A stretch of DNA of 64,000 nt, from the NCBI GenBank assembly GCA_017499595.2, contig CM039005.1, forward strand, positions 1 to 64,000. Reading direction: 5' to 3'. Made by a program: the position numbers and the translations under genes. Numbering within the stretch: the stretch's first letter is position 1; every line of letters starts with the position of its first letter. This DNA is from Psilocybe cubensis (lineage: Eukaryota). The notes beneath the pieces were generated by a model. The model was not told where the DNA came from. It made no database searches and was given only the letters and a program-made list of their open reading frames with translations. This document shows positions 1 to 23,100 of this stretch, in pieces.

Positions 1-631
1 TCGCACCTCGCTTCGCTCGGTGCTCGCTCCCCCCCTAAACCTAAACCCTAAACCCTAAACCCTAAACCCTAACCTAACCCCAACCCTAAGCTAACTAAGT
101 CTAACCTTAGTAGGAAGTAAGGTAGGCGTGTGAACTTCCGAACGGCATGTGATTGTGAAGGGCCGGATCTAATTTAGTACATGGGAAAAGTTACTTAGTA
201 CTTCGGGAAAAGTTCCTTAGTACCGTGGAAACATTTTTGATGGACCGGATCATGAACTGTCCAATTAAGATTCACAACAATCAATCATTCTATTGTTTGA
301 TTGTTAGGTAAGGACCCAGGTAAGTTATTTATACTCTAGACATGTGAATATTCCCATGTCGCGGTTACTCGGAGCCACGTAACCAGAGTAATCTATATCC
401 ATGTGATTCACATCACAGTCAATAACCCACGATGTCAAAGAACAAAAGTGTTGGATCCACTTTTGACAGGTTACCATGTGCCACATCGACCCGTGACACT
501 CTGTTCATCAGAGACCTGTCTAACTTGACAATAAACATTGACAGATTTGTGATAGTCGGTAAGATACATGACAGCTGCGCAGCATCACTTCACGCGCTGT
601 CATCGGATGTCTAGAACATTCCTTCTAAGAA

Positions 632-698
632 TAGCCACTGAAGAGTCTATAAAGACGAAAGGGCTGGTTGTTGGGATCCCCCAACAGCCCTCTGGCTA
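632..698 (+). ncRNA. Type I hammerhead ribozyme, copy 1
   Basis: Stem I TAGCCA/TGGCTA, core CTGAAGA, stem II GTC-TATAAA-GAC, GAAA, stem III GGGCT..AGCCC, cleavage triplet CUC (cut after 692). Confidence 0.88.
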
Positions 699-766
699 CT
701 TTCCATTTAACTCCCAGTTTAAACTAGTCGCTCGCACCTCGCTTCGCTCGGTGCTCGCTCCCCCCC

Positions 767-1491
767 TAAACCCTAAACCCTAAACCCTAACCTAACCCCA
801 ACCCTAAGCTAACTAAGTCTAACCTTAGTAGGAAGTAAGGTAGGCGTGTGAACTTCCGAACGGCATGTGATTGTGAAGGGCCGGATCTAATTTAGTACAT
901 GGGAAAAGTTACTTAGTACTTCGGGAAAAGTTCCTTAGTACCGTGGAAACATTTTTGATGGACCGGATCATGAACTGTCCAATTAAGATTCACAACAATC
1001 AATCATTCTATTGTTTGATTGTTAGGTAAGGACCCAGGTAAGTTATTTATACTCTAGACATGTGAATATTCCCATGTCGCGGTTACTCGGAGCCACGTAA
1101 CCAGAGTAATCTATATCCATGTGATTCACATCACAGTCAATAACCCACGATGTCAAAGAACAAAAGTGTTGGATCCACTTTTGACAGGTTACCATGTGCC
1201 ACATCGACCCGTGACACTCTGTTCATCAGAGACCTGTCTAACTTGACAATAAACATTGACAGATTTGTGATAGTCGGTAAGATACATGACAGCTGCGCAG
1301 CATCACTTCACGCGCTGTCATCGGATGTCTAGAACATTCCTTCTAAGAATAGCCACTGAAGAGTCTATAAAGACGAAAGGGCTGGTTGTTGGGATCCCCC
1401 AACAGCCCTCTGGCTACTTTCCATTTAACTCCCAGTTTAAACTAGTCGCTCGCACCTCGCTTCGCTCGGTGCTCGCTCCCCCCCTAAACCC
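767..1491 (+). repeat. ~720-bp non-coding terminal unit (pseudo-LTR/3'UTR) of the PLE, 9 copies
   Basis: Other copies at approximately 35-773, 5165-5908, 9546-10287, 11140-11883, 12699-13436, 14221-14957, 15032-15776 and 19450-20150; begins with a degenerate telomeric tract and ends in C7-TAAACCC. Confidence 0.93.
1350..1416 (+). ncRNA. Type I hammerhead ribozyme, copy 2 (~105 nt upstream of the ORF ATG)
   Basis: Same sequence as 632-698. Confidence 0.88.
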
Positions 1492-1520
1492 AACGACTTT
1501 GCTATTATCCATCAGCCACT

Positions 1521-2676
1521 ATGTCATCTCAATACTCTGCTGCTTTCTCTCGTGCCATGTCCCCCACCCTGGACGCACTCACCCAGGCCGTCGTCAACAA
1601 CACCGTTTTCGGCGTCAACGATGAAGCAGGCCGCCATAACGCTCTGATCGACGAGCTGGCCACTGTGGTCATCAAAAAAATAGCTGAGTGCCGCTCCGTT
1701 GACCAAGTCATAGACTGCGTCTTTTTTGACTATCGTGCTGCCCTTAGGGAGTTTCTCCTCAACCTCGCATCGTGGTGCGATAAGAGGGAAACAGTCAAGG
1801 CTAGCCTCGAGCGCCTTGAATCTGCCGTTAGCGCAGGCAACACGCCCAATCGCCTTAAGGTGAAGGCACCCGAGTTCCAACTTACGAAGGAATTCGCGAA
1901 TGCCGGGTCAGCGGAGGCTCTTCGAGTCTCCACTACGTTCTCTACCGCTCGTGACGCCTTCCAAAAGGCAATTAACGACGGCGCCATTCAGGCGAAAAAG
2001 GACGAGCTGACTTTTTGGGATGATAAATGCGCACTCAACTCTTGCTACGAAGCTGCTGCCCTCATCGTTAAGGCAACTTACGATGATCGCAAATCCAGCT
2101 ACAAGCTCCCTGTTTTCTCTACAGATAACAAGGGAGTTCGACGTATAGCAGAGTGGGTAGTGTCTCCGCAAAAGAAAGCCGAATGCAGTGCGCTGCAAAC
2201 CATACTGCCGGCGATCTTTTCTCACATCAAACAAATTGTCAACATGCGCCACCGCGCTTTGGCAATTAAGATTGAGAAAAAGCGGACGACTGCGGCAACA
2301 GCCGATGTCGAGATGGCCGACGCGACCAAACCAGGTCCGTCGATTCAATCCCTTATTGATAAGGGCTTGAATGCACGTCTCAAGAAGCTCAACCTTGGAT
2401 CTGTGGGCAAGAAGGCAAGTTTTCGTAACCCTTCACCCATAATTCTGGATACTAATTACTACTCTAATTACCCAGACTTTGTCTGGCCAGAATTCATCCA
2501 AGGCTCCTCAACCTCAGGCCAAGAAAGCTGGCCCTTCGAAACCCAAGTCGTCGTCGACGCCTTCGCAACGCAAGCCTCAAACCAAGGCTTCCAACAAGGT
2601 CGACAACAAGAAGAAAGGGAAGGGGAGAGCTCCCGTCAAGAACGATCCAAAGGGAAAGGGAAAGGCAAGAGCCTAG
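1521..2676 (+). CDS. Predicted spliced ORF1 protein (~364 aa; exons 1521-2414 and 2476-2676) with Lys-rich basic tail
   Basis: AAG|GCAAGT donor at 2415, CTAAT branch-like motifs, CAG acceptor at 2475; splicing joins in frame to the ORF at 2479-2676; several differences between copies are synonymous in that frame. Confidence 0.7.
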
Positions 2677-5051
2677 ATGCGCGGTCTAATGTAGTACCTT
2701 TTACGTCGGTGAGACCCGCCTTCCCCAACTCTATTCCTGACGATATACTCACCATGACTAAAACAGACGCAGTTTCTTTCGTACACTTACATACTCCAAT
2801 ATCATTCTTGTTGGCTGGCCAGTATCGTAGTAGTGTACATTGTAGTCCTGGTGTTTCTGTCCCTGTTGATGTAGCAAACGATCTCTCTCTCGGACTTAAT
2901 TATATGTTTTTCACTCTGCCTTCTAAAAGTCTGATCATGCAAGCATGGAATGATTTCCAACGAAGAATAAGATGGCGTATCTATTTTTTGTTTAAGGAAG
3001 GCATGAATAAACCTTTTGATCCAGATTATGGAGTAAGCTCAAAAAAGAAAGAGAAACCTCCTGTATTACCGCAATATATGGAACTTGGCCTTTCGATGGG
3101 ACGTCGGTACGTGCAACGCACGATCGCAAGTATCCCGGAAGAAGCCCTTACGGAGATGCGAAAGCACGCGTTCTCTCCTAAAAGGGACAAGATCCGTAAG
3201 TTTCTTATCGATAACAACTATGTTATTACGATGACAGATAAGAATCTTGGCCTCGCGGTGTCTGAACGCGACTGGATATTAAGGAATGAGCTCAATCTTC
3301 TTGAAGATGAACGTAATTACGAAGAGTTAGAATTCGAAGTTGCGCAAGAAGTTATGAAGAGCAAAATGATTCAGATGCAAACGCTCGCACGTACTGTCGA
3401 AGATGAACATCTGTTTCTATTTGAACTTGGGTTGTCTCGATTCTTTCTATCGAATGTACCGGAAGACGGATCATCGTTCAAGTATCCTCAATTTCATGGT
3501 ATACCTAAAATCCACAAGAAACCTACTGGATTTAGGCCCATAATTCCGTGTCACTCTGTAGTATTTAATCCTGCAGCCAAGTTTGTATCAAAAGAGCTTA
3601 AGCCGATTATTAAATCGACTCCTTCAATCATACACGGAACGAAGGATCTCTTTACGAGATTAAGCCAATTGCGTATAGACTCCAAAAGACAATGGTATTT
3701 TGTCACTGGAGATGTAGTTGCTTTCTATCCCAATATTCCGTTGGACTTGTGCATCGAAATCGTTTGTAGTATGTACGAGGAATGGTTACTCAACGCTTCG
3801 GAAGAAAACACTGCATTAGCCCATATTAATCCAAATTCGTTAGAGAATAACTTGGTTAAATTGGGCATCTTTAAACGTGCTATCGAGATTGGCAATACGC
3901 AATTGATAACACAACATGGGTCTAGATATTTTAGACAAAAAAATGGCCTCGCAATGGGCGTCGCGGATTCTCCGGACCTTGCTAACCTCTTTGGAGCCCA
4001 TTTTGAAATAAAGTCAAAAATCTTAGACCACCCAAACGTGGCCTTCTATGGAAGGTACATCGACGATTGTTTCGCAATTGTTTACGCCGAGTCCGAAGCA
4101 CTTGCACTTAATCTTATTAAAGAAACAATAAAGTTCGATGGTTGTGTTATCGAATGGGCTGTTTCCTCGTCGGGATGTCAATTTCTCGATGCTTTCATAT
4201 TCAAGGAGTCTGGAAAACTTCATTGGAAGCCTTTTGTCAAGACAGGAAACAACCGAGAACGAGTTCCATGGGTATCACATCATCCTTTGGACGTCAAACG
4301 TGGCGTCTACATTGGAGAGTTATCCAGGTTAGCCGTGCTATGTAGTACCAAGGAAATCTACATCGGAGCAATTAGAGACCTTAACGCTCTCTATTTGATG
4401 CGCGGTTATCCCGAAAACCTAGTCATATCTTGGTGTAAGAAGAATATACAAGAACGTTGGGAAAAGCGATTCGCTTTACGAGTCGCAGAGCACGACGAAT
4501 CCATTCTTGTACTTAAAACCAGATTTGATCAGGTATGGAATTGGTTTTCAGCTGCTGAACTTGGAAAAACTGTTACCGAGTACTGGTCGGCATGGTATGA
4601 ACATGCCGAGAAAGGTTTGTATAGTGCAGACTCGTCCAGACCCCTTATCAAACCAGATCCAAATTACGTTCACGACCTCGATGATGTTCGCCCGGAGCTG
4701 TTCACACAGATCCTCGTGGACGGAGAAACTGAGTTCGTACCGGATTTGAGGAAGATAGGACTACTCGGAAGTCGTTGGATAGTATCGCGAAAACGCAATA
4801 CTAATCTTTTCGACCTTGCAAATGTGTGGAAGAAAACAGTCTTTCGTAAACTGGATGAAGACATCGCTGAAAAAGGTGGTGTTGTTCCCGAAACTCAAAA
4901 CGTTAATGAAACTTATCATTCTGCTTTAGTTGAAGCTGCTGAGCAGATAAGTATCGAAAGTGATAACGAGATAATACTTCATAGACGTTCAATCTCACAA
5001 GAGAGGGAACATCCAGAATTTGGCAGAATATCCAAATCTTACAACCGATGA
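1521..5051 (+). CDS. PLE ORF1-reverse transcriptase fusion, 1176 aa (copy 1, full length)
   Basis: RT motifs FHGIPKIHK..FRPII, GDVVAFYPNIP, QKNGLAMGVADSPDLANLF, RYIDD; helical N-terminal ~300 aa; no endonuclease motif at the C-terminus. Confidence 0.92.
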   Translation: MSSQYSAAFSRAMSPTLDALTQAVVNNTVFGVNDEAGRHNALIDELATVVIKKIAECRSVDQVIDCVFFDYRAALREFLLNLASWCDKRETVKASLERLESAVSAGNTPNRLKVKAPEFQLTKEFANAGSAEALRVSTTFSTARDAFQKAINDGAIQAKKDELTFWDDKCALNSCYEAAALIVKATYDDRKSSYKLPVFSTDNKGVRRIAEWVVSPQKKAECSALQTILPAIFSHIKQIVNMRHRALAIKIEKKRTTAATADVEMADATKPGPSIQSLIDKGLNARLKKLNLGSVGKKASFRNPSPIILDTNYYSNYPDFVWPEFIQGSSTSGQESWPFETQVVVDAFATQASNQGFQQGRQQEEREGESSRQERSKGKGKGKSLDARSNVVPFTSVRPAFPNSIPDDILTMTKTDAVSFVHLHTPISFLLAGQYRSSVHCSPGVSVPVDVANDLSLGLNYMFFTLPSKSLIMQAWNDFQRRIRWRIYFLFKEGMNKPFDPDYGVSSKKKEKPPVLPQYMELGLSMGRRYVQRTIASIPEEALTEMRKHAFSPKRDKIRKFLIDNNYVITMTDKNLGLAVSERDWILRNELNLLEDERNYEELEFEVAQEVMKSKMIQMQTLARTVEDEHLFLFELGLSRFFLSNVPEDGSSFKYPQFHGIPKIHKKPTGFRPIIPCHSVVFNPAAKFVSKELKPIIKSTPSIIHGTKDLFTRLSQLRIDSKRQWYFVTGDVVAFYPNIPLDLCIEIVCSMYEEWLLNASEENTALAHINPNSLENNLVKLGIFKRAIEIGNTQLITQHGSRYFRQKNGLAMGVADSPDLANLFGAHFEIKSKILDHPNVAFYGRYIDDCFAIVYAESEALALNLIKETIKFDGCVIEWAVSSSGCQFLDAFIFKESGKLHWKPFVKTGNNRERVPWVSHHPLDVKRGVYIGELSRLAVLCSTKEIYIGAIRDLNALYLMRGYPENLVISWCKKNIQERWEKRFALRVAEHDESILVLKTRFDQVWNWFSAAELGKTVTEYWSAWYEHAEKGLYSADSSRPLIKPDPNYVHDLDDVRPELFTQILVDGETEFVPDLRKIGLLGSRWIVSRKRNTNLFDLANVWKKTVFRKLDEDIAEKGGVVPETQNVNETYHSALVEAAEQISIESDNEIILHRRSISQEREHPEFGRISKSYNR

Positions 5052-5766
5052 AAAGAATACTAGCGCTTAAGGCGTAAAGCATTAGAAAAAAACCCTAACC
5101 GTAAGTATTCCTTGCTATAAAGTAACAAACATCTACTTACAAGCAACACATTGGATTGAATAGCTAAACCTAAACCTAAACCCTAAACCCTAAACCCTAA
5201 ACCCTAACCTAACCCCAACCCTAAGCTAACTAAGTCTAACCTTAGTAGGAAGTAAGGTAGGCGTGTGAACTTCCGAACGGCATGTGATTGTGAAGGGCCG
5301 GATCTAATTTAGTACATGGGAAAAGTTACTTAGTACTTCGGGAAAAGTTCCTTAGTACCGTGGAAACATTTTTGATGGACCGGATCATGAACTGTCCAAT
5401 TAAGATTCACAACAATCAATCATTCTATTGTTTGATTGTTAGGTAAGGACCCAGGTAAGTTATTTATACTCTAGACATGTGAATATTCCCATGTCGCGGT
5501 TACTCGGAGCCACGTAACCAGAGTAATCTATATCCATGTGATTCACATCACAGTCAATAACCCACGATGTCAAAGAACAAAAGTGTTGGATCCACTTTTG
5601 ACAGGTTACCATGTGCCACATCGACCCGTGACACTCTGTTCATCAGAGACCTGTCTAACTTGACAATAAACATTGACAGATTTGTGATAGTCGGTAAGAT
5701 ACATGACAGCTGCGCAGCATCACTTCACGCGCTGTCATCGGATGTCTAGAACATTCCTTCTAAGAA

Positions 5767-5833
5767 TAGCCACTGAAGAGTCTATAAAGACGAAAGGGCT
5801 GGTTGTTGGGATCCCCCAACAGCCCTCTGGCTA
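5767..5833 (+). ncRNA. Type I hammerhead ribozyme, copy 3
   Basis: Same sequence as 632-698. Confidence 0.88.
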
Positions 5834-5898
5834 CTTTCCATTTAACTCCCAGTTTAAACTAGTCGCTCGCACCTCGCTTCGCTCGGTGCTCGCTCCCC

Positions 5899-5970
5899 CC
5901 CTAAACCCTAAACCCTAAACCCTAAACCCTAAACCCTAAACCCTAAAACCCTAACCCTAAACCCTAAACC
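5899..5970 (+). repeat. Interstitial telomeric tract (TAAACCC)n, i.e. TTTAGGG type
   Basis: About 10 units including TAAAACCC and TAACCC variants, at an element junction. Confidence 0.95.
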
Positions 5971-8900
5971 GTCAACAACACTGTCTTCGGCGTCAACGAT
6001 GAAGCAGGCCGCCACAACGCTCTTATCGACGAGCTGGCCACTGTAGTCATCAAAAAAATAGCTGAGTGCCGCTCCGTTGACCAAGTCATAGACTGCGTCT
6101 TTTTTGACTATCGTGCTGCCCTCAGGGAGTTTCTCCTCAACCTCGCATCGTGGTGCGACAAGAGGGAAACAGTCAAGGCTAGCCTCGAGCGCCTTGAATC
6201 TGCCGTTAGCGCAGGCAACACGCCCAATCGCCTTAAGGTGAAGGCACCCGAGTTCCAACTTACGAAGGAATTCGCGGATGCCGGGTCAGCGGAGGCTCTT
6301 CGAGTCTCCACTACGTTCTCTTCCGCTCGTGATGCCTTCCAAAAGGCAATTAACGACGGCGCCGTTCAGGCGAAAAAGGACGAGCTGGCTTTTTGGGATG
6401 ATAAATGCGCGCTCAACTCTTGCTACGAAGCTGCTGCCCTCATCGTTAAGGCAACTTACGATGATCGCAAATCCAGCTACAAGCTCCCTGTTTTCTCTAC
6501 AGACAACAAGGGAGTTCGACGTATAGCAGAGTGGGTAGTGTCTCCGCAAAAGAAAGCCGAATGCAGTGCGCTGCAAACTATACTGCCGGCGATCTTTTCT
6601 CATATCAAACAGATTGTCAACATGCGCCACCGCGCCTTGGCAATTAAGATTGAGAAAAAGCGGACGACTGCGGCAACAGCCGATGTCGAGATGGCCGATG
6701 CGACCAAACCAGGTCCATCGATTCAATCCCTTATTGATAAGGGCTTGAATGCACGTCTCAAAAAGCTCAACCTTGGATCTGTGGGCAAGAAGGCAAGTTT
6801 TCGTAACCCTTCACCCATAATTCTGGACACTAATTATTACTCTAATTACCCAGACTTTGTCTGGCCAGAATTCGTCCAAGGCTCCTCAACCTCAGGCCAG
6901 GAAAGCTGGCCCTTCGAAACCCAAGTCGTCGTCGACGCCTTCGCAGAGGAAGCCTCAAACCAAGGCTTCCAACAAGGTCGACAACAAGAAGAAAGGGAAG
7001 GGGAGAGCTCCCGTCAAGAACAACGATCCAAAGGGAAAGGGAAAGGCAAGAGCCTAGACGCGCGGTCTACTGTAGCATCATTTACGTCGGTGAGACCCGC
7101 CTTCCCCAACTCTATTCCTGACGATATACTCACCATGACTAAAACAGACGCAGTTTCTTTTGTACACCTCAATACCCCGATTTCATTCTTATTGGCTGGC
7201 CAGTATAGATCTAGTGTACACTGTAGTCCTGGTGTTTCGGTCCCTGTTGATGTAGCAAATGATTTATCTCTTGGACTCAATTATATGTTTTTTACACTGC
7301 CTTCTAAAAGTCTGATCATGCAAGCATGGAATGATTTTCAACGAAGAATAAGATGGCGTATCTATTTTTTGTTTAAAGAAGGCATGAATAAACCTTTCGA
7401 TCCAGACTATGGAGTAAGCTCTAAAAAGAAAGAGAAACCTCCAATGTTACCGCAATTTATGGAACTTGGCCTTTCAATGGGACGTCGGTACGTTATTAAA
7501 ACGATCGCAAGTATCCCGGAAGAAGCCCTTAAAGAGATGCGAAAGCACGCGTTCTCTCCTAAAAGGGACAAGATCCAAAAGTTTCTTTTCGATAACAACT
7601 ATGTTATTACGATGACAGATAAGAATCTTGGCCTCGCGGTGTCTGAACGCGACTGGATATTAAGGAATGAGCTCAATCTTCTTGAAGATGAACGCAACTA
7701 CGAAGAGTTAGAATTCGAAGTTGCGCAAGAAGTTATGAAGAGCAAAATGATTCAGATGCAAACTCTCGCACGTACCGTCGAAGATGAACATCTGTTTCTA
7801 TTTGAACTTGGGTTGTCTCGATTCTTTCTATCGAATGTACCGGAAGACGGATCATCGTTCAAGTATCCTCAATTTCATGGTATACCTAAAATCCACAAGA
7901 AACCTACTGGATTTAGGCCCATAATTCCGTGTCACTCTGTAGTATTTAATCCTGCAGCCAAGTTTGTATCAAAAGAGCTTAAGCCGATTATTAAATCGAC
8001 TCCTTCAATCATTCACGGAACGAAGGATCTCTTTACGAGATTAAGCCAATTGCGTATAGACCCCAAACGACAATGGTATTTTGTCACCGGGGATGTAGTT
8101 GCTTTCTATCCCAATATTCCGTTGGACTTGTGCATCGAAATCGTTTGTAATATGTACGAGGAATGGTTACTCAACGCTTCGGAAGAAAACACTGCATTAG
8201 CCCATATTAATCCAAATTCGTTAGAGAATAACTTGGTTAAATTGGGCATCTTTAAACGTGCTATCGAGATTGGCAATACGCAATTGATAACACAACATGG
8301 GTCTAGATATTTTAGACAAAAAAATGGCCTCGCAATGGGCGTCGCGGATTCTCCGGACCTTGCTAACCTCTTTGGAGCCCATTTTGAAATAAAGTCAAAA
8401 ATCTTAGACCACCCAAACGTGGCCTTCTATGGAAGGTACATCGACGATTGTTTCGCAATTGTTTACGCCGAGTCCGAAGCACTTGCACTTAATCTTATTA
8501 AAGAAACAATAAAGTTCGATGGTTGTGTTATCGAATGGGCTGTTTCCTCGTCGGGATGTCAATTTCTCGATGCTTTCATATTCAAGGAGTCTGGAAAACT
8601 TCATTGGAAGCCATTTGTCAAGACAGGAAACAACCGAGAACGAGTTCCATGGGTATCACATCATCCTTTGGACGTCAAACGTGGCGTCTACATTGGAGAG
8701 TTATCCAGGTTAGCCGTGCTATGTAGTACCAAGGAAATCTACATCGGAGCAATTAGAGACCTTAACGCTCTCTATTTGATGCGCGGTTATCCCGAAAACC
8801 TAGTCATGTCTTGGTGTAAGAAGAATATACAAGAACGTTGGGAAAAGCGATTCGCTTTACGAGTCGCAGAGCACGACGAATCCATTCTTGTACTTAAAAC

Positions 8901-9432
8901 CAGATTTGATCAGGTATGGAATTGGTTTTCAGCTGCTGAACTTGGAAAGACTGTTACCGAGTACTGGTCGGCATGGTATGAACATGCCGAGAAAGGTCTG
9001 TATAGTGCAGACTCGTCCAGACCCCTTATCAAACCAGATCCAAATTACGTTCACGACCTCGATGATGTTCGCCCGGAGCTGTTCACACAGATCCTCGTGG
9101 ACGGAGAAACTGAGTTCGTACCGGATTTGAGGAAGATAGGACTACTCGGAAGTCGTTGGATAGTATCGCGAAAGCGCAATACTAATCTTTTCGACCTTGC
9201 AAATGTGTGGAAGAAAACAGTCTTTCGTAAACTGGATGAAAACATCGCTGAAAAAGGTGGTGTTGTTCCCGAAACTCAAAACGTTAATGAAACTTATCAT
9301 TCTGCTCTAGTTGAAGCTGCTGAACAGATAAGTATCGAAAGTGATAACGAGATAATACTTCATAGACGTTCAATCTCACAAGAGAGGGAACATCCAGAAT
9401 TCGGCAGAATATCCAAATCTTACAACCGATGA
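5971..9432 (+). CDS. PLE ORF1-RT, copy 2, missing the first ~24 codons
   Basis: Homologous to copy 1 from VNNTVFG onward; preceded directly by the telomeric tract 5899-5970; no native ATG. Confidence 0.88.
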   Translation, partial: VNNTVFGVNDEAGRHNALIDELATVVIKKIAECRSVDQVIDCVFFDYRAALREFLLNLASWCDKRETVKASLERLESAVSAGNTPNRLKVKAPEFQLTKEFADAGSAEALRVSTTFSSARDAFQKAINDGAVQAKKDELAFWDDKCALNSCYEAAALIVKATYDDRKSSYKLPVFSTDNKGVRRIAEWVVSPQKKAECSALQTILPAIFSHIKQIVNMRHRALAIKIEKKRTTAATADVEMADATKPGPSIQSLIDKGLNARLKKLNLGSVGKKASFRNPSPIILDTNYYSNYPDFVWPEFVQGSSTSGQESWPFETQVVVDAFAEEASNQGFQQGRQQEEREGESSRQEQRSKGKGKGKSLDARSTVASFTSVRPAFPNSIPDDILTMTKTDAVSFVHLNTPISFLLAGQYRSSVHCSPGVSVPVDVANDLSLGLNYMFFTLPSKSLIMQAWNDFQRRIRWRIYFLFKEGMNKPFDPDYGVSSKKKEKPPMLPQFMELGLSMGRRYVIKTIASIPEEALKEMRKHAFSPKRDKIQKFLFDNNYVITMTDKNLGLAVSERDWILRNELNLLEDERNYEELEFEVAQEVMKSKMIQMQTLARTVEDEHLFLFELGLSRFFLSNVPEDGSSFKYPQFHGIPKIHKKPTGFRPIIPCHSVVFNPAAKFVSKELKPIIKSTPSIIHGTKDLFTRLSQLRIDPKRQWYFVTGDVVAFYPNIPLDLCIEIVCNMYEEWLLNASEENTALAHINPNSLENNLVKLGIFKRAIEIGNTQLITQHGSRYFRQKNGLAMGVADSPDLANLFGAHFEIKSKILDHPNVAFYGRYIDDCFAIVYAESEALALNLIKETIKFDGCVIEWAVSSSGCQFLDAFIFKESGKLHWKPFVKTGNNRERVPWVSHHPLDVKRGVYIGELSRLAVLCSTKEIYIGAIRDLNALYLMRGYPENLVMSWCKKNIQERWEKRFALRVAEHDESILVLKTRFDQVWNWFSAAELGKTVTEYWSAWYEHAEKGLYSADSSRPLIKPDPNYVHDLDDVRPELFTQILVDGETEFVPDLRKIGLLGSRWIVSRKRNTNLFDLANVWKKTVFRKLDENIAEKGGVVPETQNVNETYHSALVEAAEQISIESDNEIILHRRSISQEREHPEFGRISKSYNR

Positions 9433-10209: not shown

Positions 10210-10277
10210 TCTTTCTATTTCAAACTCACAGTTTAAACTAGTCGCTCGCACCTCGCTTCGCTCGGTGCTCGCTCCCC

Positions 10278-13294: not shown

Positions 13295-13361
13295 TAGCCA
13301 CTGAAGAGTCTATAAAGACGAAAGGGCTGGTTGTTGGGATCCCCCAACAGCCCTCTGGCTT
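13295..13361 (+). ncRNA. Type I hammerhead ribozyme, copy 6
   Basis: Core intact; stem I 3' variant TGGCTT. Confidence 0.85.
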
Positions 13362-13433
13362 CTTTCCATTTTAACTCCCAGTTTAAACTAGTCGCTCGCA
13401 CCTCGCTTCGCTCGGTGCTCGCTCCCCCCCTAA

Positions 13434-14107: not shown

Positions 14108-14815
14108 AAAGAATACTAGCGCGTAAGGCGTAAAGCATTAGAAAAAAACCCTAACCGTAAGTATTCCTTGCTACAAAGTAACAAACATCTACTTACAAGC
14201 AACACATTGGATTAAATAGCTAAACCTAAACCTAAACCCTAAACCCTAAACCCTAAGCCCTAACCTAACCCCAACCCTAAGCTAACTAAGTCTAACCTTA
14301 GTAGGAAGTAAGGTAGGCGTGTGAACTTCCGAAAGGCATGTGATTGTGAAGGGCCGGATCTAATTTAGTACATGGGAAAAGTTACTTAGTACCTCGGGAA
14401 AAGTTCCTTAGTACCGTGGAAACATTTTTGATGGACCGGATCATGAACTGTCCAATTAAGATTCACAACAATCAATCAATTGATTGTTAGGTAAGGACCC
14501 AGGTAAGCTATTTATACTCTTGACATGAGAATATTCCCATGTCACGGTTACTCGGAGCCACGTAACCAGAGTATTTTATATCCATGTGATTCACATCACA
14601 GTCAATAACCCACGATGTCAAAGAACAAAAGTGTTGGATCCACTTTTGACAGGTTACCATGTGCCACATCGACCCGTGACACTCTGTTCATCAGAGATCT
14701 ATCTAACTTGACAATAAACATTGACAGATTTGTGATAGTCGGTAAGATACATGACAGCTGCGCAGCATCACTTCACGCGCTGTCATCGGATGTTCCAGAA
14801 CATTCCTTCTAAGAA

Positions 14816-14882
14816 TAGCCACTGAAGAGTCTATAAAGACGAAAGGGCTGGCTGCTGATAACAATCAACAGCTCTCTGGCTA
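14816..14882 (+). ncRNA. Type I hammerhead ribozyme, copy 7 (variant stem III)
   Basis: Core intact; the stem III tip TGGG-ATCC-CCCA is replaced by TGAT-AACA-ATCA, which keeps pairing. Confidence 0.88.
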
Positions 14883-14947
14883 CTTTCCATTTAACTCACA
14901 GTTTAAATTAGTCGCTCGCACCTCGCTTCGCTCGGTGCTCGCTCCCC

Positions 14948-14997
14948 CCCTAAACCCTAAACCCTAAACCCTAAACCCTAAACCCTAAACCCTAAAC
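14948..14997 (+). repeat. Interstitial telomeric tract (TAAACCC)n
   Basis: About 7 units at a junction. Confidence 0.95.
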
Positions 14998-15633
14998 ATC
15001 TACTTACAAGCAACACATTGGATTGAATAGCTAAACCTAAACCTAAACCCTAAACCCTAAACCCTAAGCCCTAACCTAACCCCAACCCTAAGCTAACTAA
15101 GTCTAACCTTAGTAGGAAGTAAGGTAGGCGTGTGAACTTCCGAACGGCATGTGATTGTGAAGGGCCGGATCTAATTTAGTACATGGGAAAAGTTACTTAG
15201 TACTTCGGGAAAAGTTCCTTAGTACCGTGGAAACATTTTTGATGGACCGGATCATGAACTGTCCAATTAAGATTCACAACAATCAATCATTCTATTGTTT
15301 GATTGTTAGGTAAGGACCCAGGTAAGCTATTTATACTCTAGACATGTGAATATTCCCATGTCGCGGTTACTCGGAGCCACGTAACCAGAGTAATCTATAT
15401 CCATGTGATTCACATCACAGTCAATAACCCACGATGTCAAAGAACAAAAGTGTTGGATCCACTTTTGACAGGTTACCATGTGCCACATCGACCCGTGACA
15501 CTCTGTTCATCAGAGACCTGTCTAACTTGACAATAAACATTGACAGATTTGTGATAGTCGGTAAGATACATGACAGCTGCGCAGCATCACTTCACGCGCT
15601 GTCATCGGATGTCTAGAACATTCCTTCTAAGAA

Positions 15634-15700
15634 TAGCCACTGAAGAGTCTATAAAGACGAAAGGGCTGGTTGTTGGGATCCCCCAACAGCCCTCTGGCCT
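15634..15700 (+). ncRNA. Type I hammerhead ribozyme, copy 8
   Basis: Core intact; TGGCCT variant. Confidence 0.85.
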
Positions 15701-15805
15701 TCTTTCCATTTAACTCACAGTTTAAACAAGTCGCTCGCACCTCGCTTCGCTCGGTGCTCGCTCCCCCCCTAAACCCAACGACTTTGCTATTACCCAACAG
15801 CTACC

Positions 15806-18800
15806 ATGTCTTCCACTTACTCTGCTGCCTTCTCTCGTGCCATGTCCCCCACCCTGGACGCACTCACCCAGGCTGTCGTCAACAACACAGTTTTTGGCGT
15901 CAACGACGAAGCTGGCCGCCACAACGCCCTCATCGACGAGTTGGCCACTGTCGTCATCAAGAAAATAGCTGAGTGCCGCTCCATTGACCAGATTGTAGAC
16001 TGCGTCTTTTTTGACTATCGTGCTGCCCTTAGGGAGTTTCTCCTCAACCTCGCATCGTGGTGCGATAAGAGGGAAACAGTCAAGGCTAGCCTCGAGCGCC
16101 TTGAACTTGCCGTTAGCGCAGGCAACACCCCCAATCGCCTTCGGGTGAAGGCTCCCGAGTTCCAACTTACGAAGGAATTCGCGGATGCCGGGTCAGCGGA
16201 AGCTCTTCGAGTTTCCTCTACGTTCTCCACCGCTCGTGATGTCTTCCAAAAGGCAATCAACGACGGCGCCATTCAGGCGAAAAAGGACGAACTGGCCTTT
16301 TGGGATGATAAATGCGCACTCAATAACTGTTATGAAGCTGCTGCCCTCATCGTTAAGACAACTTACGATGATCGCAAATCCAGCTATAAGCTCCCCGTTT
16401 TCTCTACAGACAACAAGGGAGTTCGTCGAATAACAGATTGGGTAGTGTCACCGCAGAAGAAGGCTGAATGCAGCGCATTGCAAACCATTTTGCCAGCCAT
16501 CTTCTCTCATATCAAACAGATTGTCAACTTGCGCCACCGCGCTTTGGCAATCAAGATTGAGAAAAAGCGGTCGACTGCGGCAACAGCCGATGTCGAGATG
16601 GCCGATGCGACCAAACCAGGTCCATCGATTCAATCCCTTATTGATAAGGGCTTGAATGCACGTCTCAAGAAGCTCAACCTTGGATCTGTGGGCAAGAAGG
16701 CAAGTTCTCGTAACCCTTCACCCATAATTCTGGATACTAATTACTATTCTAATTACCCAGACTTTGTCTGGCCAGAATTCGTCCAAGGCTCCTCAACCTC
16801 AGGCCAAGAAAGCTGGCCCTTCGAAATTCAAACCCTCGTCGACGCCTTCGCAGAAGAAGCCCCAAACCAAGGCTTCCAACAAGGTCGACAACAAGAAGAA
16901 AGGGAAGGGGAGAGCCCCCGTCAAGAACGATCCAAAGGGAAAGGGAAAGGCAAGAGCCTAGACGCGCGGTCTAATGTAGTACCTTTTACGTCGGTAAGAC
17001 CCGCCTTCCCCAACTCTATTCCTGACGATATACTCACCATGACTAAAACAGACGCAGTTTCTTTTGTACACTTACATACGCCGATCTCATTCTTGTTGGC
17101 TGGCCAGTATCGTAGTAGTGTACACTGTAGTCCTGGTGTGGTGGTCCCTGTAGATATAGCAAATGATTTGTCGCTCGGACTCAATTATATGTTTTTTACT
17201 CTGCCTTCTCAAAGTCTGATCATGCAAGCATGGAATGATTTTCAACGAAGAATAAGATGGCGTATCTATTTTTTGTTTAAGGAAGGCATGAACAAACCTT
17301 TTGATCCAGATTACGGAGTAAGCTCAAAAAAGAAAGAGAAACCTCCAGTATTACCGCAATACATGGAACTTGGCCTTTCGATGGGACGTCGGTACGTGCA
17401 ACGCACGATCGCAAGTATCCCGGAAGAAGCCCTTACGGAGATGCGAAAGCACGCGTTCTCTCCTAAAAGGGACAAGATCCGTAAGTTTCTTATCGATAAC
17501 AACTATGTTATTACGATGACAGATAAGAATCTTGGCCTCGCGGTGTCTGAACGCGACTGGATATTAAGGAATGAGCTCAATCTTCTTGAAGATGAACGCA
17601 ATTACGAAGAGTTAGAATTCGAAGTTGCACAAGAAGTTATGAAGAGCAAAATGATTCAGATGCAAACGCTCGCACGTACTGTCGAAGATGAACATCTGTT
17701 TCTATTTGAACTTGGGTTGTCTCGATTCTTTCTATCGAATGTACCGGAAGACGGATCATTGTTCAAGTATCCTCAATTTCATGGTATACCTAAAATCCAT
17801 AAAAAACCTACTGGATTTAGGCCCATAATTCCGTGTCACTCTGTAGTATTTAATCCTGCAGCCAAGTTTGTATCAAAAGAGCTTAAGCCGATTATTAAAT
17901 CGACTCCTTCAATCATTCACGGAACGAAGGATCTCTTTACGAGATTAAGCCAATTGCGTATAGACCCCAAACGACAATGGTACTTTGTCACCGGGGATGT
18001 AGTCGCTTTCTATCCCAATATTCCGTTGGACTTGTGCATCGAAATCGTTTGTAGTATGTACGAGGAATGGTTACTCAACGCTTCGGAAGAAAACACTGCA
18101 TTAGCCCATGTTAATCCAAATTCGTTAGAGAATAACTTGGTTAAATTGGGCATCTTTAAACGTGCTATCGAGATTGGCAATACGCAATTGATAACACAAC
18201 ATGGGTCTAGATATTTTAGACAAAAAAATGGCCTCGCAATGGGCGTCGCGGATTCTCCGGACCTTGCTAACCTCTTTGGAGCCCATTTTGAAATAAAGTC
18301 AAAAATCTTAGACCACCCAAACGTGGCCTTCTATGGAAGGTACATCGACGATTGTTTCGCAATTGTTTACGCCGAGTCCGAAGCACTTGCACTTAATCTT
18401 ATTAAAGAAACAATAAAGTTCGATGGTTGTGTTATCGAATGGGCTGTTTCCTCGTCGGGATGTCAATTTCTCGATGCTTTCATATTCAAGGAGTCTGGAA
18501 AACTTCATTGGAAGCCATTTGTCAAGACAGGAAACAACCGAGAACGAGTTCCATGGGTATCACATCATCCTTTGGACGTCAAACGTGGCGTCTACATTGG
18601 AGAGTTATCCAGGTTAGCCGTGCTATGTAGTACCAAGGAAATCTACATCGGAGCAATTAGAGACCTTAACGCTCTCTATTTGATGCGCGGTTATCCCGAA
18701 AACCTAGTCATGTCTTGGTGTAAGAAGAATATACAAGAACGTTGGGAAAAGCGATTCGCTTTACGAGTCGCAGAGCACGACGAATCCATTCTTGTACTTA

Positions 18801-19336
18801 AAACCAGGTTTGATCAGGTATGGAATTGGTTTTCAGCTGCTGAACTTGGAAAAACTGTTACCGAGTACTGGTCGGCATGGTATGAACATGCCGAGAAAGG
18901 TCTGTATAGTGCAGACTCGTCCAGACCCCTTATCAAACCAGATCCAAATTACATTCACGACCTCGATGATGTTCGCCCGGAGCTGTTCACACAGATCCTC
19001 GTGGACGGAGAAACTGAGTTTGTACCGGATTTGAGGAAGATAGGACTACTCGGAAGTCGTTGGATAGTATCGCGAAAACGCAATACTAATCTTTTCGACC
19101 TTGCAAATGTGTGGAAGAAAACAGTTTTTCGTAAACTGGATGAAGACATCGCTGAAAAAGGTGGTGTTGTTCCCGAAACTCAAAACGTTAATGAAACTTA
19201 TCATTCTGCTCTAGTTGAAGCTGCTGAACAGATAAGTATCGAAAGTGATAACGAGATAATACTTCATAGACGTTCAATCTCACAAGAGAGGGAACATCCA
19301 GAATTCGGCAGAATATCCAAATCTTACAACCGATGA
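15806..19336 (+). CDS. PLE ORF1-RT fusion, 1176 aa (proximal full-length copy)
   Basis: Intact ORF with the same RT motifs; GC-AG intron conserved at 16700-16760. Confidence 0.92.
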   Translation: MSSTYSAAFSRAMSPTLDALTQAVVNNTVFGVNDEAGRHNALIDELATVVIKKIAECRSIDQIVDCVFFDYRAALREFLLNLASWCDKRETVKASLERLELAVSAGNTPNRLRVKAPEFQLTKEFADAGSAEALRVSSTFSTARDVFQKAINDGAIQAKKDELAFWDDKCALNNCYEAAALIVKTTYDDRKSSYKLPVFSTDNKGVRRITDWVVSPQKKAECSALQTILPAIFSHIKQIVNLRHRALAIKIEKKRSTAATADVEMADATKPGPSIQSLIDKGLNARLKKLNLGSVGKKASSRNPSPIILDTNYYSNYPDFVWPEFVQGSSTSGQESWPFEIQTLVDAFAEEAPNQGFQQGRQQEEREGESPRQERSKGKGKGKSLDARSNVVPFTSVRPAFPNSIPDDILTMTKTDAVSFVHLHTPISFLLAGQYRSSVHCSPGVVVPVDIANDLSLGLNYMFFTLPSQSLIMQAWNDFQRRIRWRIYFLFKEGMNKPFDPDYGVSSKKKEKPPVLPQYMELGLSMGRRYVQRTIASIPEEALTEMRKHAFSPKRDKIRKFLIDNNYVITMTDKNLGLAVSERDWILRNELNLLEDERNYEELEFEVAQEVMKSKMIQMQTLARTVEDEHLFLFELGLSRFFLSNVPEDGSLFKYPQFHGIPKIHKKPTGFRPIIPCHSVVFNPAAKFVSKELKPIIKSTPSIIHGTKDLFTRLSQLRIDPKRQWYFVTGDVVAFYPNIPLDLCIEIVCSMYEEWLLNASEENTALAHVNPNSLENNLVKLGIFKRAIEIGNTQLITQHGSRYFRQKNGLAMGVADSPDLANLFGAHFEIKSKILDHPNVAFYGRYIDDCFAIVYAESEALALNLIKETIKFDGCVIEWAVSSSGCQFLDAFIFKESGKLHWKPFVKTGNNRERVPWVSHHPLDVKRGVYIGELSRLAVLCSTKEIYIGAIRDLNALYLMRGYPENLVMSWCKKNIQERWEKRFALRVAEHDESILVLKTRFDQVWNWFSAAELGKTVTEYWSAWYEHAEKGLYSADSSRPLIKPDPNYIHDLDDVRPELFTQILVDGETEFVPDLRKIGLLGSRWIVSRKRNTNLFDLANVWKKTVFRKLDEDIAEKGGVVPETQNVNETYHSALVEAAEQISIESDNEIILHRRSISQEREHPEFGRISKSYNR

Positions 19337-19999
19337 AAAGAATACTAGCGCGTAAGGCGTAAAGCATTAGAAAAAAACCCTAACCGTAAGTATTCCTTGC
19401 TACAAAGTAACAAACATCTACTTACAAGCAACACATTGGATTAAATAGCTAAACCTAAACCTAAACCCTAAACCCTAAACCCTAAGCCCTAACCTAACCC
19501 CAACCCTAAGCTAACTAAGTCTAACCTTAGTAGGAAGTAAGGTAGGCGTGTGAACTTCCGAACGGCATGTGATTGTGAAGGGCCGGATCTAATTTAGTAC
19601 ATGGGAAAAGTTACTTAGTACTTCGGGAAAAGTTCCTTAGTACCGTGGAAACATTTTTGATGGACCGGATCATGAACTGTCCAATTAAGATTCACAACAA
19701 TCAATCAGTCTATTGTTTGATTGTTAGGTAAGGACCCAGGTAAGCTATTTATACTCTAGACATGTGAATATTCCCATGTCGCGGTTACTCGGAGCCACGT
19801 AACCAGAGTACTCTATATCCATGTGATTCACATCACAGTCAATAACCCACGATGTCAAAGAACAAAAGTGTTGGATCCATTTTTGACAGGTTACCATGTG
19901 CCACATTGACAGATTTGTGATAGTCGGTAAGATACATGACAGCTGCGCAGCATCACTTCACGCGCTGTCATCGGATGTCTAGAACATTCCTTCTAAGAA

Positions 20000-20066
20000 T
20001 AGCCACTGAAGAGTCTATAAAGACGAAAGGGCTGGTTGTTGGGATCCCCCAACAGCCCTCTGGCCT
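20000..20066 (+). ncRNA. Type I hammerhead ribozyme, copy 9
   Basis: Core intact; TGGCCT variant. Confidence 0.85.
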
Positions 20067-20148
20067 TCTTTCCATTTAACTCACAGTTTAAACAAGTCGC
20101 TCGCACCTCGCTTCGCTCGGTGCTCGCTCCCCCCCTAAACCCTAAACC

Positions 20149-23100
20149 CTAAAACGCCGTGATCAGAGAGCGCCAGCGAAGAGGCTTGAACGGCTGCAGG
20201 AGATAGCGCATTGTCATGTCGCCACATCGAGCACTGAATGCCTCAGACGTCATCGTCGATTTGATGCCCGGCCAAAGCTGAACGCGATAGCGATGAAGCG
20301 CTTCGGGGTTGAGGAATTTCGCCACCAGAACTTCTTCAAACGGGCGAAATACAGCAAGGTTTCGGATGAGGGACTCTGCCCACTCGCGGGTAATGACGTG
20401 AGGAATGTGGCGATCCTTGAGATGTAGATGCGATGTCTTGTCCTGCAACGCAACGTGCGCCAGCAAGTGCATCTCAAACCGCAGGTTTCGTAGGGCTGCG
20501 GGTGTGTTCCTGAGTAACGCGCGTGCAAATTCCGATCCCCGAACCTGCAGAAGAGTCGAGTAGGAAACCCCCGGCGCTAGGACCTCGCGTACGCGTTCCA
20601 TGCGCCGCAATAGGTCAAGGGCGGCAGAAGGCTTCCAAACGAGCTCGCCTTCATGCATATAAACGAAACGCTGGGCTCGCACAGGGTCGGAGAGCAACCA
20701 ACGTCCGTAAGAGTCCCGATAAGCAGAAAAATTGTTACGAGGGTCGTCCAGGAAGCAATAGCCAGCAGATGTATTGTTGGCGCTGTCGACTATGCTCTCG
20801 AGGTCGAGTTCAGGGAAGAGATCGCTGGGTATGTCTTCGCCAAAAAAGAGACGATCCTGCACCATGTTCTCATACCGAACATGCTCCTCGTCGTGCATTT
20901 TCTTGATCATCGATAGAGATATGAGGTGGCCGTTGCAGCTAACCTCTCTTCCGTTCTTGTCCGTGAAACGAAACTGGGAGGCGGTGACTTCGTCTGAGCG
21001 CACAGATGCGAGAACACGGTGGACGTTGTAAATAAACGCCATTGGCGTCTCCTGCCCCGTTGAGATGTACCTTTCCACCTTTTTGAGAGCGCTAGGAACC
21101 ATATATTAACAAATGAACATGAAAAAAGTAAGGAACTTACTCGAATGACGATACGTTGGATTCTTCGGAAATCCTTTCAATTTCAAAGAGCATTGTCGCC
21201 CGAATGCAGTATTCAACGGCGGCGCATATGCCCGTAATCTCTGACGCCAAGCGAAAGCTCCCGTTCGCGCGCAGAGAGTAGAAAACTACGAACAAGATGA
21301 CGGGCGAGAAGAATTTTCGCAGCTTAGAGCTGATCGGGTACTGGCGTCGCTCGTGTGCAAATAATGAGTAGCACGCCTTCTGATATGCCTCGTCGATGAG
21401 CTTCTTGTCTCCGCCGTCCAGTTTGGCTCGTAGCTCTAGCAAAATTACTTTCTGAGATTCGTCGAGAGCGGGGTAGCGCACGGGAGATGTCCACGCGGAG
21501 TCCATGGTGCGCAAAACGTTGAAAATAAGCCGCACAATAATGTTTCCGTATCGCTGCTGCGTCTCGGGTTGAATGTGGTTGAAATTGTTTGACGACATGT
21601 TGCTTCTACCGTGTGCAGTGAATATCAGCTTTGATTTAATGCAATTAAACTTACGATTGATTGAACTGAGCAATATTGTGCGTCATGCCGAACGTATGGT
21701 GTTCGTTCACCAGTAGCTGGACGCTGGCCAGTGCGCGATGGGCTGCGAGCTGGAGTTGTTTGCCCCATGGCTCGGTCTTGGCGTCTGGTAGCCTGGTAAC
21801 CTCCTGGATGTCGACAGGGGTCAACCCTTTCACTGCGTCAAGCCATCCTTCGCGGAAGAGAAACGAGGACAGATTTTGCGGGTCCTCAATGTCTTGGACG
21901 GGCAACTGTGTGTAATCGGGTGGAGGCGGCATTGTTGTTCCAAAAACAGTCGAGTATGCAAAGGGAATGTCCTGGCGAAGCGAGAGGCACGAAGTATCGA
22001 CTGGAAAATAACGCTTGCTTGGGCCTTTTGTAAGTATCTGCCCGTACATCGTGTAGCAAGCGCGCTGCGTGATAGGCACTTGGCAACGCTGCCCGTTAGA
22101 CTGGTGACCCCGCAGGCTCAACAACGAGTTGTAGCCGCGGTGGCATTTGGAACAAAAATGGAGCTGATCAGCCTCTATAGGAATCCCAAAAATCGGACGG
22201 ATTGGTCCAGCGCTGTAGGCTATCTCAGCCAGCGACACGATCCCGTATTTCCGCCGAAGATCTTCGAGCAATGTGGGGCCTGGTGTATAGTGTGCATTGT
22301 GCTGCTTGACGTGTGCGCACACCGACGCCGGCTCAATCGCTTCCCCACATTCTATGCAGATAACAATCTTGAGAAAAGTGTTGATAACAATTCCAAGGGC
22401 CGGAAGATTGTGCGCGTCGTCGTAGATCACTGTGTGGTCATCGGGTACGATGTCGTAGAGCGAAATGTCTACTTCCATCGCAGTGGTGGGCGTGGCTCGA
22501 ATAGCAGGTGGCTGATGCATGCCCGGAGGTGTCGGTGTCATCCTCTGCGCAGATATGTTGCGCAGTGGCGCAGGAGAAACGGGCCCAGGTATCATCGTTG
22601 GGGGCGATCCTGGGCTCGAGACCAACGGACGCGGCGACCCCTGGCTGCTGATAGCGCGCGCGCCAAGAAACGTGCGCGTAGATGGCCGACTCGCCGCAGG
22701 GGTTACCGGCGCAGGAATCATTGTTGGGGGAGATCCTGCCCTCGAGCCCAAGGGACGCGGCGACGCTTGCCTGCGGGGAGCGTGCGGGATAAGAAACAAG
22801 CGCGTAGACGGCGGATGAAGCTGTGAAGCGGGAGGTGGGGCTCTTGTAGGAGGTGCGGCTCCCCAAGATGGGCGAGGGAGCTGCGATGGAAACATGGGCT
22901 CCGGCGACGGTGGAGATAACGATCGCTCGTTGTCTGAGGTCTGCTGGGGAACCTCCAACGACGGTTCTGCGTGCGAATCAGCAAAGTGACGCTGTAGTAT
23001 GGATTTAGCGTGAAAAATCAAAACACATTGGAAACTGGCTCACCTGTAAACTGTAGGGCGTACTGTACTCCTTGCGGCAGTGTGTGCACGGAAATTTCAT

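Follow-up and report, generated by a model that had tools for sequence, protein, structure and literature searches.

A probable chromosome-end array of endonuclease-free Penelope-like elements in Psilocybe cubensis, with a candidate hammerhead ribozyme and a candidate splice switch

The DNA considered here, referred to as the window, is the stretch of 64,000 nucleotides at positions 1-64,000 of contig CM039005.1 (forward strand) in the Psilocybe cubensis assembly GCA_017499595.2. Its positions 1-20155 are composed of ten co-oriented copies or fragments (A to J, Table 1) of one 4,417-bp retroelement, and this part is very probably the left chromosome-end array of a telomeric Penelope-like element (PLE) of the Coprina type. 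Unique DNA follows beyond copy J, and its genes, a TCP-1 fragment and an ankyrin-repeat gene, are of ordinary kinds. The copies were mapped with the unit 1484-5900 as BLAST query against the window, which returned copies on the + strand only and none past 20134. Perfect (TAAACCC)>=2 tracts, of which the window contains 15, are likewise all on the + strand and lie between 42 and 20149, with none on the - strand and none in the remaining 44 kb beyond 20149. In all ten copies the sense strand of the element is the C-rich telomere strand. A first-pass annotation of the window had postulated at least 20 kb of co-oriented copies on this strand, with which the copy map agrees. It should be noted that the window begins inside a copy and that the chromosome tip is therefore outside view.

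At the 3′ end the copies are uniform. In ten of ten copy ends the motif GCTCGCTCCCCCCC is followed by TAAACC, and these are its only 10 occurrences; the last C of GCTCGCTCCCCCCC is at 35, 766, 1484, 5901, 10280, 11876, 13430, 14950, 15769, and 20135. That all copies end at the same C7-TAAACCC site, as had been proposed, is thus correct except for the ends at 35 and 13430, where the first unit reads TAAACC-T instead of TAAACCC. At the 5′ end the copies are variably truncated, with at least five different end points, and five junctions carry telomere tracts, much as the annotation had described them. Tracts of 4 to 10 units, some with variants, cap E, F, G, and I and lead B and C, while D and J are preceded by C7 and a single TAAACCC. 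The junction C7-TAAACCC-AACGACTTTGC is the same for C|D and I|J. In these two pairs a partial tandem arrangement generates the pseudo-long terminal repeats (pseudo-LTRs) of the element, and since a single insertion, consisting of pseudo-LTR and body, accounts for C+D and another for I+J, the array goes back to about eight events and not to ten. The array as described in the annotation is confirmed, the number of insertions being lower than the number of copies, and the structure of the junctions fits the proposed alternation of element addition and telomere-repeat addition. The head-to-tail junction is also found in relatives of the element; overlapping ends were present in 13 of the first 60 contigs listed. 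As a side observation, only about 2.5 telomere units separate J, the oldest copy, from unique DNA (20136-20160), which resembles a healed terminal break and not an old long telomere.

Table 1. Copies of the element and its parts in the window (nt, nucleotides; aa, amino acids; ORF, open reading frame; RT, reverse transcriptase; UTR, untranslated region)
Feature	Position	Strand	Description
Copy A	1-35	+	Last 35 nt of terminal unit, cut by window start; ends in C7
Copy B	36-766	+	Solo terminal unit (pseudo-LTR): telomere-like tract, hammerhead 632-698, 74-nt tail, C7
Copy C	767-1484	+	Upstream pseudo-LTR of D, hammerhead 1350-1416; joined via C7-TAAACCC-AACGAC
Copy D	1485-5901	+	Full-length 4,417-bp unit; starts with one TAAACCC at 1485-1491
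Long frame of D	1521-5051	+	Helical ORF1 domain aa 1-265; unstructured linker aa 286-394; RT aa ~440-1090
DKN and YIDD motifs	aa 573-575 and aa 846-849 of the long frame of D
Intron 1 candidate	2415-2475	+	61 nt, aag|GCAAGT ... CTAAT ... CCCAG|; removal gives a +1 frame shift
ORF1 exon 2, +1 frame	2476-2676	+	Basic tail ending KGKGKARA, TAG at 2674-2676; overlaps long frame
Intron 2 candidate, 3′ UTR	5101-5163	+	CCCTAACC|GTAAGT ... GAATAG|CTAAACC; splits telomere-like tract
Internal telomere-like tract	5164-5245	+	TAAACC(C) units, then degenerate TAACC/TAACCCC/AACCC units
Hammerhead of D	5767-5833	+	Predicted cleavage between 5827 and 5828, 74 nt before C7 end
Telomere repeats D/E	5902-5969	+	Variant units TAAAACCC and TAACCC included
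Copy E	5970-10280	+	5′-truncated, begins at unit position 109
Telomere repeats E/F	10281-10352	+
Copy F	10353-11876	+	Truncated near unit position 2903; same as D over compared parts
Telomere repeats and remnant	11877-11911	+	Four telomere repeats, then CCCC-TAAACC remnant of an upstream unit end
Copy G	11912-13430	+	Truncated at unit position 2895
Copy H	13431-14950	+	Begins at unit position 2895; abuts C7-TAAACC of G; most divergent pseudo-LTR
Telomere repeats H/I	14951-14993	+
Copy I	14994-15769	+	Upstream pseudo-LTR of J; starts inside intron 2, unit position 3644
Copy J	15770-20135	+	Full length; 45-bp deletion in pseudo-LTR
Inner border of array	20136-20155	+	Two TAAACCC units and TAAAAC, then unique subtelomeric DNA
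Further hammerheads	10145-10207, 11742-11808, 13296-13360, 14816-14882, 15636-15698, 20002-20064	+

The two intact ORFs claimed in the annotation are those of D and of J (15806-19336, + strand), each with 1,176 codons; a third frame, that of E, is open across all 1,153 codons left but 5′-truncated. The protein encoded by the element shares 99% identity with proteins that bear the name Psilocybe cubensis. A protein family search, in which 7,999 candidates were scored, yielded 273 matches at E <=0.001, and soil metagenomes are the source of most among the 120 matches listed. The cluster members named P. cubensis are on contigs of at least 11 different lengths in consecutive runs of locus tags, which include JR316_0000001; indirectly, this suggests that the element family occupies many places in the P. 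cubensis genome, some of them at contig starts. For comparison a set of 80 relatives (loci designated L001 etc.) and a protein alignment of 81 sequences were used. In this alignment T572-D573-K574-N575-L576-G577, Y843-G844-R845, and I847-D848-D849 are invariant, and the RT blocks PKIHK..RPIIPC, GDVVAFYPNIP, and GLAMGV..SP are invariant or nearly so. PLEs typically have a DKG or DKN motif in the extension that precedes their RT on the N-terminal side (passages in PMC8557442 and PMC13159263).

In the 1,176-aa protein no Pfam family was found at E values up to 1 and hence no GIY-YIG endonuclease, and the 3′ 850 nt (5052-5905) contain no frame of more than 75 aa on either strand. RVT_1 was matched by three of five relatives scanned, with 34.7, 29.6, and 27.2 bits (cut-off 29.6). 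The predicted AlphaFold model has a mean pLDDT of 76.2, its residues 1119-1176 being unstructured. The five best Foldseek matches of this predicted fold are telomerase reverse transcriptases (TERTs), and so are all 11 best rows in VIA-align (Z 15.2 to 17.1, 300 to 415 residues aligned), below which come the RT of a diversity-generating retroelement (Z 14.8), group II intron RTs (Z <=13.9), and the RTs of R2 and LINE-1 (Z <=12). The fold alignments begin at model residue ~440, which faces residue ~452 of human TERT. In the Atlas, the named clusters nearest to the protein consist of rotifer proteins that contain DUF8422, HTH_animal, and RVT_1. Two results weigh against the closeness to telomerase: a PDB sequence search with the protein and with a 19-sequence profile gave chance-level matches without a TERT among them, and the lead of the TERTs over other RTs in fold Z is only about 2 units. 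That the gene is part of a mobile multi-copy 4.4-kb unit argues against its being the host telomerase. Taken as a whole, the presence of DKN and YIDD, the missing GIY-YIG domain, and a predicted fold that among solved structures is closest to TERT support a telomerase-like RT without endonuclease in an element with the features of Coprina-type PLEs, and the annotation had read the element as an endonuclease-deficient PLE.

All nine complete terminal units (nine of nine) contain a type I hammerhead. For example, the hammerhead of B consists of helix I (AGCCA/UGGCU), the core CUGAAGA, helix II (GUCU/AGAC), GAAA, and a long helix III, with predicted cleavage after ...CCCUC. A descriptor of the motif matched 37 of 80 relatives on the + strand, one of 80 on the - strand, and none of 80 shuffled sequences. 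Among 36 distinct hammerhead sequences, helix pairs that were not forced by the search are kept in 72 to 81%, as compared with 41 to 59% after shuffling of the partners, and several pair types are found at these unforced positions. These numbers come from a register-anchored count, which was used instead of an alignment with MAFFT and RNAalifold because the latter, applied to 32 hammerheads, recovered helix II only and misaligned the 3′ halves. The minimum-energy fold is a three-way junction (z = -3.56; 0 of 200 shuffles as stable), and the divergent copy H retains it via compensating changes in helix III. It should be noted, however, that in the 64 kb Rfam finds no match at the gathering score, the best hammerhead match being below threshold (29.1 bits, E = 0.086). 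Hammerheads of fungal PLEs are monomeric with a large helix III, they reside in the flanking repeat of Coprina-type elements, and one from Serpula lacrymans cleaves as a monomer in vitro (parts of PMC4209133). The ribozyme seen in the first-pass annotation is thus supported, by its presence in all complete terminal units and by covariation among relatives, as a conserved candidate hammerhead of the published fungal PLE type for which self-cleavage is predicted.

Three observations concern the surroundings of the hammerhead. A motif CTCGCTTCGCTCG is present between hammerhead and terminal C-run in the window (693-766) and, among distant relatives, in L007, L015, L019, L020, L041, L050, L063, and L064; L001, L010, L036, and L055 have a CUUCGG-type hairpin in place of CTCGCTTCGCTCG. 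A generally conserved hairpin between hammerhead and terminal unit had also been a candidate and was dropped: in a crude test, which covered the 22 of 30 loci in which a terminal motif was found, the longest stem averaged 4.64 bp as compared with 4.21 bp after shuffling, a difference without significance, so that only CTCGCTTCGCTCG remains. In the distant relative L064 (280-962) two diverged hammerheads, 609 nt apart, are located upstream of the frame, and these are tandem solo terminal units like A-B-C.

The end of the element matches the telomere. In the relatives, telomere-like tracts were found at 25 of 80 loci, 29 on the + strand and none on the - strand. The layout is uniform: after the hammerhead come a tail of 41 to 83 nt, then a C-run, and finally one TAACC(C) or TAAACC(C) unit, which continues either into the element's own 5′ UTR or into telomere repeats. 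Both states are represented in L007/L008, L010/L011, L013/L014, L050-L052, and the window, and in all five of these (four sibling sets plus the window) the built-in terminal unit is of the same type as the flanking repeat, TAAACCC or TAACC(C). Both repeat types exist in mushrooms: the telomeres of Stropharia rugosoannulata are reported to be TTTAGGG (PMC8874372) and those of Agrocybe chaxingu TTAGGG (PMC11433599). In the predicted fold the last 15 nt of the tail (CCCCCCCUAAACCC and the preceding U) are unpaired. The end of the element follows a change of the host telomere repeat, as is predicted if it pairs with the G-rich overhang, and the telomere-priming site postulated in the annotation gains from this variation among relatives.

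The long frame contains the first of two candidate introns (intron 1) at the ORF1/RT boundary. By frame arithmetic, the spliced product has 364 aa and ends in a lysine-rich tail, ...KKKGKGRAPVKNDPKGKGKARA, and the unspliced product is a 1,176-aa ORF1-RT fusion. In 30 of 39 long-frame elements we read a basic +1-frame tail whose stop is located 1.0 to 1.35 kb from the start of the frame; another clade of relatives has RG-rich tails. The tail stop and the KGKGK motif are kept down to about 35% identity, and canonical short introns lie just upstream of the tail in most relatives. A frame-blind intron scan of the junction gave 34 candidates, of which 25, 3, and 6 have a length of 1, 2, and 0 mod 3, respectively, and the same scan of the rest of the frame, which is six-fold longer, gave 16, 7, and 11. 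Over the final 150 nt of the tail, 12 pairs of relatives differ by 100, 97, and 177 substitutions at the first, second, and third codon positions of the +1 frame, the 97 being those at the wobble position of the long frame within the overlap. From the third-position excess it follows that the tail is selected as protein and that the long frame need only stay open there; residues 286-394 of the long frame, which correspond to the overlap, have a pLDDT <50. Existing gene models contain the same product: GenBank model P0130 (361 aa), which covers two loci, represents the spliced form with the donor at 2403, and the same tail is found in models of 330 to 400 aa from P. cyanescens, P. cf. subviscida, Trametes, Plicaturopsis, and Piloderma. 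On ENA and Logan contigs, where genes were called without intron modelling, the frames continue through intron 1.

We envisage that unspliced RNA would both encode the fusion and serve as template for new copies, the latter because both candidate introns are retained in every genomic copy that covers them (intron 1 in D, E, and J; intron 2 in D to J). Removal of intron 1 would shift the frame by +1 and yield the ORF1 protein with the lysine-rich tail, and since the two products differ, the efficiency of splicing would set the ORF1:RT ratio. Some facts speak against such a switch. Two donors compete, GCAAGT at 2415 and GTGGGC at 2403, and the choice between them is ambiguous; no intron was found in 10 of 39 relatives, even with a loose definition included; and GenBank models P0003 and P0004 instead remove 288 nt in frame (2709-2996). 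Excision of the 288 nt takes out conserved residues and is probably a prediction error. Within this region is a 64-nt intron-like segment (2709-2772, length 1 mod 3) that recurs at the same place in L001 and L007-L011; because it belongs to conserved coding sequence, which includes the invariant P406, it is probably a chance look-alike and not a second coding intron. The comparative support for a frame-shifting intron, from substitution patterns, intron-phase bias, and gene models, is nevertheless strong, and the splice switch of the annotation is in our opinion likely to be real. That it is both real and undescribed is slightly less likely than not. Only tentatively would we extend the proposal to the whole family, where an intron of length 1 mod 3 at the ORF1/RT boundary would act as the switch, the spliced RNA giving a Gag-like ORF1 protein and the intron-retaining RNA making the fusion and alone being copied.

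The second candidate intron begins 49 nt after the stop codon of the long frame and is flanked on both sides by telomere-like sequence. An equivalent intron between telomere-like flanks is present in L002, L003/4/43, L006, L007/8, L009, L010/11, L012, and L049. Because copy I starts inside intron 2, templates must retain it. Of the eight 5′ ends, four (those of B, C, and I, with C counted a second time for the C+D event) are at most 55 nt away from the internal telomere-like tract at 5164-5245, which can be read as a built-in capping seed because a cDNA end at this place would read as telomere G-strand. In relatives from hosts of the TTAGGG type, only units of the TAACC type were seen, e.g., (TAACC)3 in L003, L004, and L043. 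The tract 5164-5245 may be a relic of an older host repeat.

How could such an array grow? The G-rich 3′ overhang of the telomere would pair with the ...CCCCCCC-UAAACCC end of the element RNA, and the element RT would then extend the chromosome outward. Telomerase would add repeats to the end of the cDNA, most easily where this is telomere-like, e.g., at the internal tract. Three of the eight events (C+D, I+J, and G) are longer than one unit and run through the same C7-TAAACC(C) junction; the template must therefore have had a 3′ end followed by a 5′ end. It could be tandem read-through RNA or a hammerhead-cut RNA of unit length that was circularised. A circular template is possible, though we would not rely on it, and it would explain why the ribozyme is set back by 74 nt from the end of the unit; a linear tandem template we regard as a weaker possibility. 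It must be held against a function of the ribozyme in template formation, which we infer, that no copy begins at the hammerhead cleavage site.

The differences between the copies bear on this scheme. B, C, D, and F have identical pseudo-LTRs, from which those of E, I, G, J, and H differ by 5, 4, 7, 7, and 23 substitutions. Among D, E, and J the divergence amounts to 2.4 to 3.6%, with most of the differences at third codon positions (D vs J: 10/4/31 substitutions by codon position in exon 1 and 3/1/9 in the RT), from which it follows that there were several lineages that stayed under selection. However, divergence does not follow the order in the array: F, deep in the array, is the same as D, over 740 nt of RT, despite E in between, which differs by 2.4%. 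In addition, the truncation points of F, G, and H nearly coincide, and the upstream junction remnant of G is the same as that of H. Therefore either several source lineages were active or some recombination has also contributed. These facts, together with the four identical pseudo-LTRs, are what would be expected if the array had grown mainly by subtelomeric recombination (unequal crossing-over, break-induced replication, or gene conversion) and only a few founders went back to retrotransposition. We consider this unlikely, since the telomere tracts between copies vary in length and contain variant units, the 5′ end points are of at least five kinds, G and H with 28 substitutions between their pseudo-LTRs are not recent tandem duplicates, and the third-position bias is as expected of active source lineages. 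Another concern is that the array may be an assembly artefact, a mis-joined or over-expanded repeat at the end of a contig, given that the terminal telomere is not in view and that three units are 100% identical. But distinct truncations, a 45-bp deletion, telomere tracts of different length, and a divergence of 0 to 3.6% are not what collapse or expansion would produce; words of the element were found in sequencing runs from 8 studies, 11 runs containing at least half of the words; and the soil-metagenome relatives have the same head-to-tail junctions. An artefact is thus very improbable.

For the tail in the +1 frame, the alternatives are that it is reached by programmed ribosomal frameshifting or that no tail is produced and the open +1 frame merely results from the purine-rich sequence. 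Over the AAG/GGA-rich stretch all three frames are indeed open, and for animal PLEs, including Athena, a frameshift with a pseudoknot that may separate ORF1 from the RT has been drawn (sections of PMC8557442). Against this speak the donor, branch, and acceptor sites upstream of the tail with the preference for lengths of 1 mod 3, the substitution pattern given above, and the conservation of the tail stop and KGKGK. We hold this alternative to be quite unlikely. Finally, telomeric head-to-tail arrays with 5′ truncation are just as typical of telomere-targeted retrotransposons of other classes, such as the non-LTR elements MoTeR, SART/TRAS, and HeT-A/TART, and the RT of our element is not recognised by Pfam. 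To assign it to one of these classes is nonetheless hardly credible: endonuclease, poly(A), and gag zinc knuckles are absent, DKN upstream of the RT is invariant, the hammerhead is within the pseudo-LTR, introns are retained, and TERTs lead the fold matches, with the RTs of R2 and LINE-1 lower. The explanation that we prefer as a whole, an array of an endonuclease-deficient Coprina-type PLE in a Psilocybe cubensis-like genome with the telomere repeat TTTAGGG, is in our judgement probable.

Elements of the Coprina clade (Cc1, Pc1/Pc2, Coprina-1_LeEd, Coprina-1_Alen) are most similar to the one in the window. According to the sections of PMC13159263 and PMC8557442 that deal with them, they have a long frame with a coiled N-terminus, DKN, RT motifs 1-7, and a thumb, lack GIY-YIG, have direct terminal repeats, and occupy the extreme end of the chromosome, flanked on either side by telomere repeats. 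All these features are common to both, the comparison being one by description. Unlike Coprina as described, the host repeat here is TTTAGGG, to which the terminal unit is adapted, and about eight events occurred at one end. Coprina-1_Alen differs by being described with two separate ORFs, where the element has one long frame. In Agaricus bisporus and Tuber, Coprina is reported at nearly every chromosome end (passages in PMC13159263 and PMC7473861). The Athena/Terminons of bdelloid rotifers also combine an endonuclease-free PLE RT with a telomeric location, and Athena has short reverse-complement telomere repeats beside hammerhead motifs (part of PMC8557442); it is described, however, with two ORFs, whereas here there is one continuous frame in which an intron makes the proposed switch. 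Animal hammerheads differ in being minimal and dimeric, that of the element being monomeric with a long helix III. The non-LTR retrozymes tied to PLEs consist of tandem hammerhead repeats (bioRxiv 10.64898/2026.07.22.740005, in part). The tandem A-B-C of solo terminal units of 720 to 732 nt, each with a type I hammerhead, is retrozyme-like; unlike retrozymes, these repeats are at a telomere, have a telomere-complementary end, and are identical to the pseudo-LTR of an autonomous element.

The element resembles TERT in that a G-strand overhang would be extended by copying a C-rich RNA template. TERT copies a short internal template repeatedly, whereas the element's own 4.4-kb RNA would be copied once. 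Like the element, HeT-A/TART/TAHRE in Drosophila and MoTeR in Magnaporthe form head-to-tail, 5′-truncated arrays at chromosome ends with the 3′ end centromere-ward. They are non-LTR elements, unlike the PLE-type element described here, and those of Drosophila replace telomerase, whereas in the window telomerase-type repeats alternate with elements. The proposed switch has its counterpart in the Gag/Gag-Pol control of retroviruses and LTR elements, where a structural protein is made alone or fused to the polymerase from overlapping frames; it differs in that intron removal versus retention would decide, with the fusion as unspliced default and without frameshift or read-through. For endonuclease-free PLEs the telomeric site, reverse-complement repeats, hammerheads, pseudo-LTRs, and intron retention are already published. 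We found no publication on such an element in Psilocybe, and the words telomere, Penelope, and retrotransposon are absent from the draft-genome paper of P. cubensis. No description was found of a frame-shifting intron switch, of an intron-split telomere seed, or of co-variation between terminal unit and host repeat, two founding papers being outside the literature covered. The frame-shifting intron conserved across the family may be the new part.

The unique DNA of the window has some features of its own. A G+C-rich minisatellite in three blocks (28445-29310; period 21 nt, unit ~GACGACAGGCGGCGACGGCGG) is located within a stretch of 61% G+C and is overlapped by long open frames on the - strand. 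Two arms of an inverted repeat of about 950 nt (33944-34888 and 60239-61186), 99% complementary, are 25 kb apart, and the distal arm adjoins a 204-nt tandem repeat (59628-60437) encoding ankyrin repeats (frame 59388-60257). A tandem duplication of about 647 nt with 95 to 96% identity (30921-32089) is found just inside the TCP-1/cpn60 fragment (29715-30374, - strand). Tandem arrays of 79 nt x 3 and 168 nt x 2 (24298-24833) are positioned upstream of an open frame of 1,006 codons (24877-27897), for which there is no Pfam match.

Penelope-like elements are the closest relatives of telomerase, and those without endonuclease are the best living model of how a retroelement could have turned into a system for chromosome-end maintenance. 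In the window such an element stands beside telomerase-type repeats with all its parts readable in one place, and the 80 relatives allow comparative tests. A 3′ unit that varies with the TTAGGG or TTTAGGG repeat of the host is what is predicted for a primer site that acts by base pairing. With copies of more than unit length and a conserved hammerhead, the idea of a circular or tandem template can be put to the test, and intact copies are present in a mushroom that can be cultivated. If the switch is true, it would explain how two proteins are obtained from one frame and why PLEs retain introns, since intron retention would then tie the RT to the RNA by which it is encoded.

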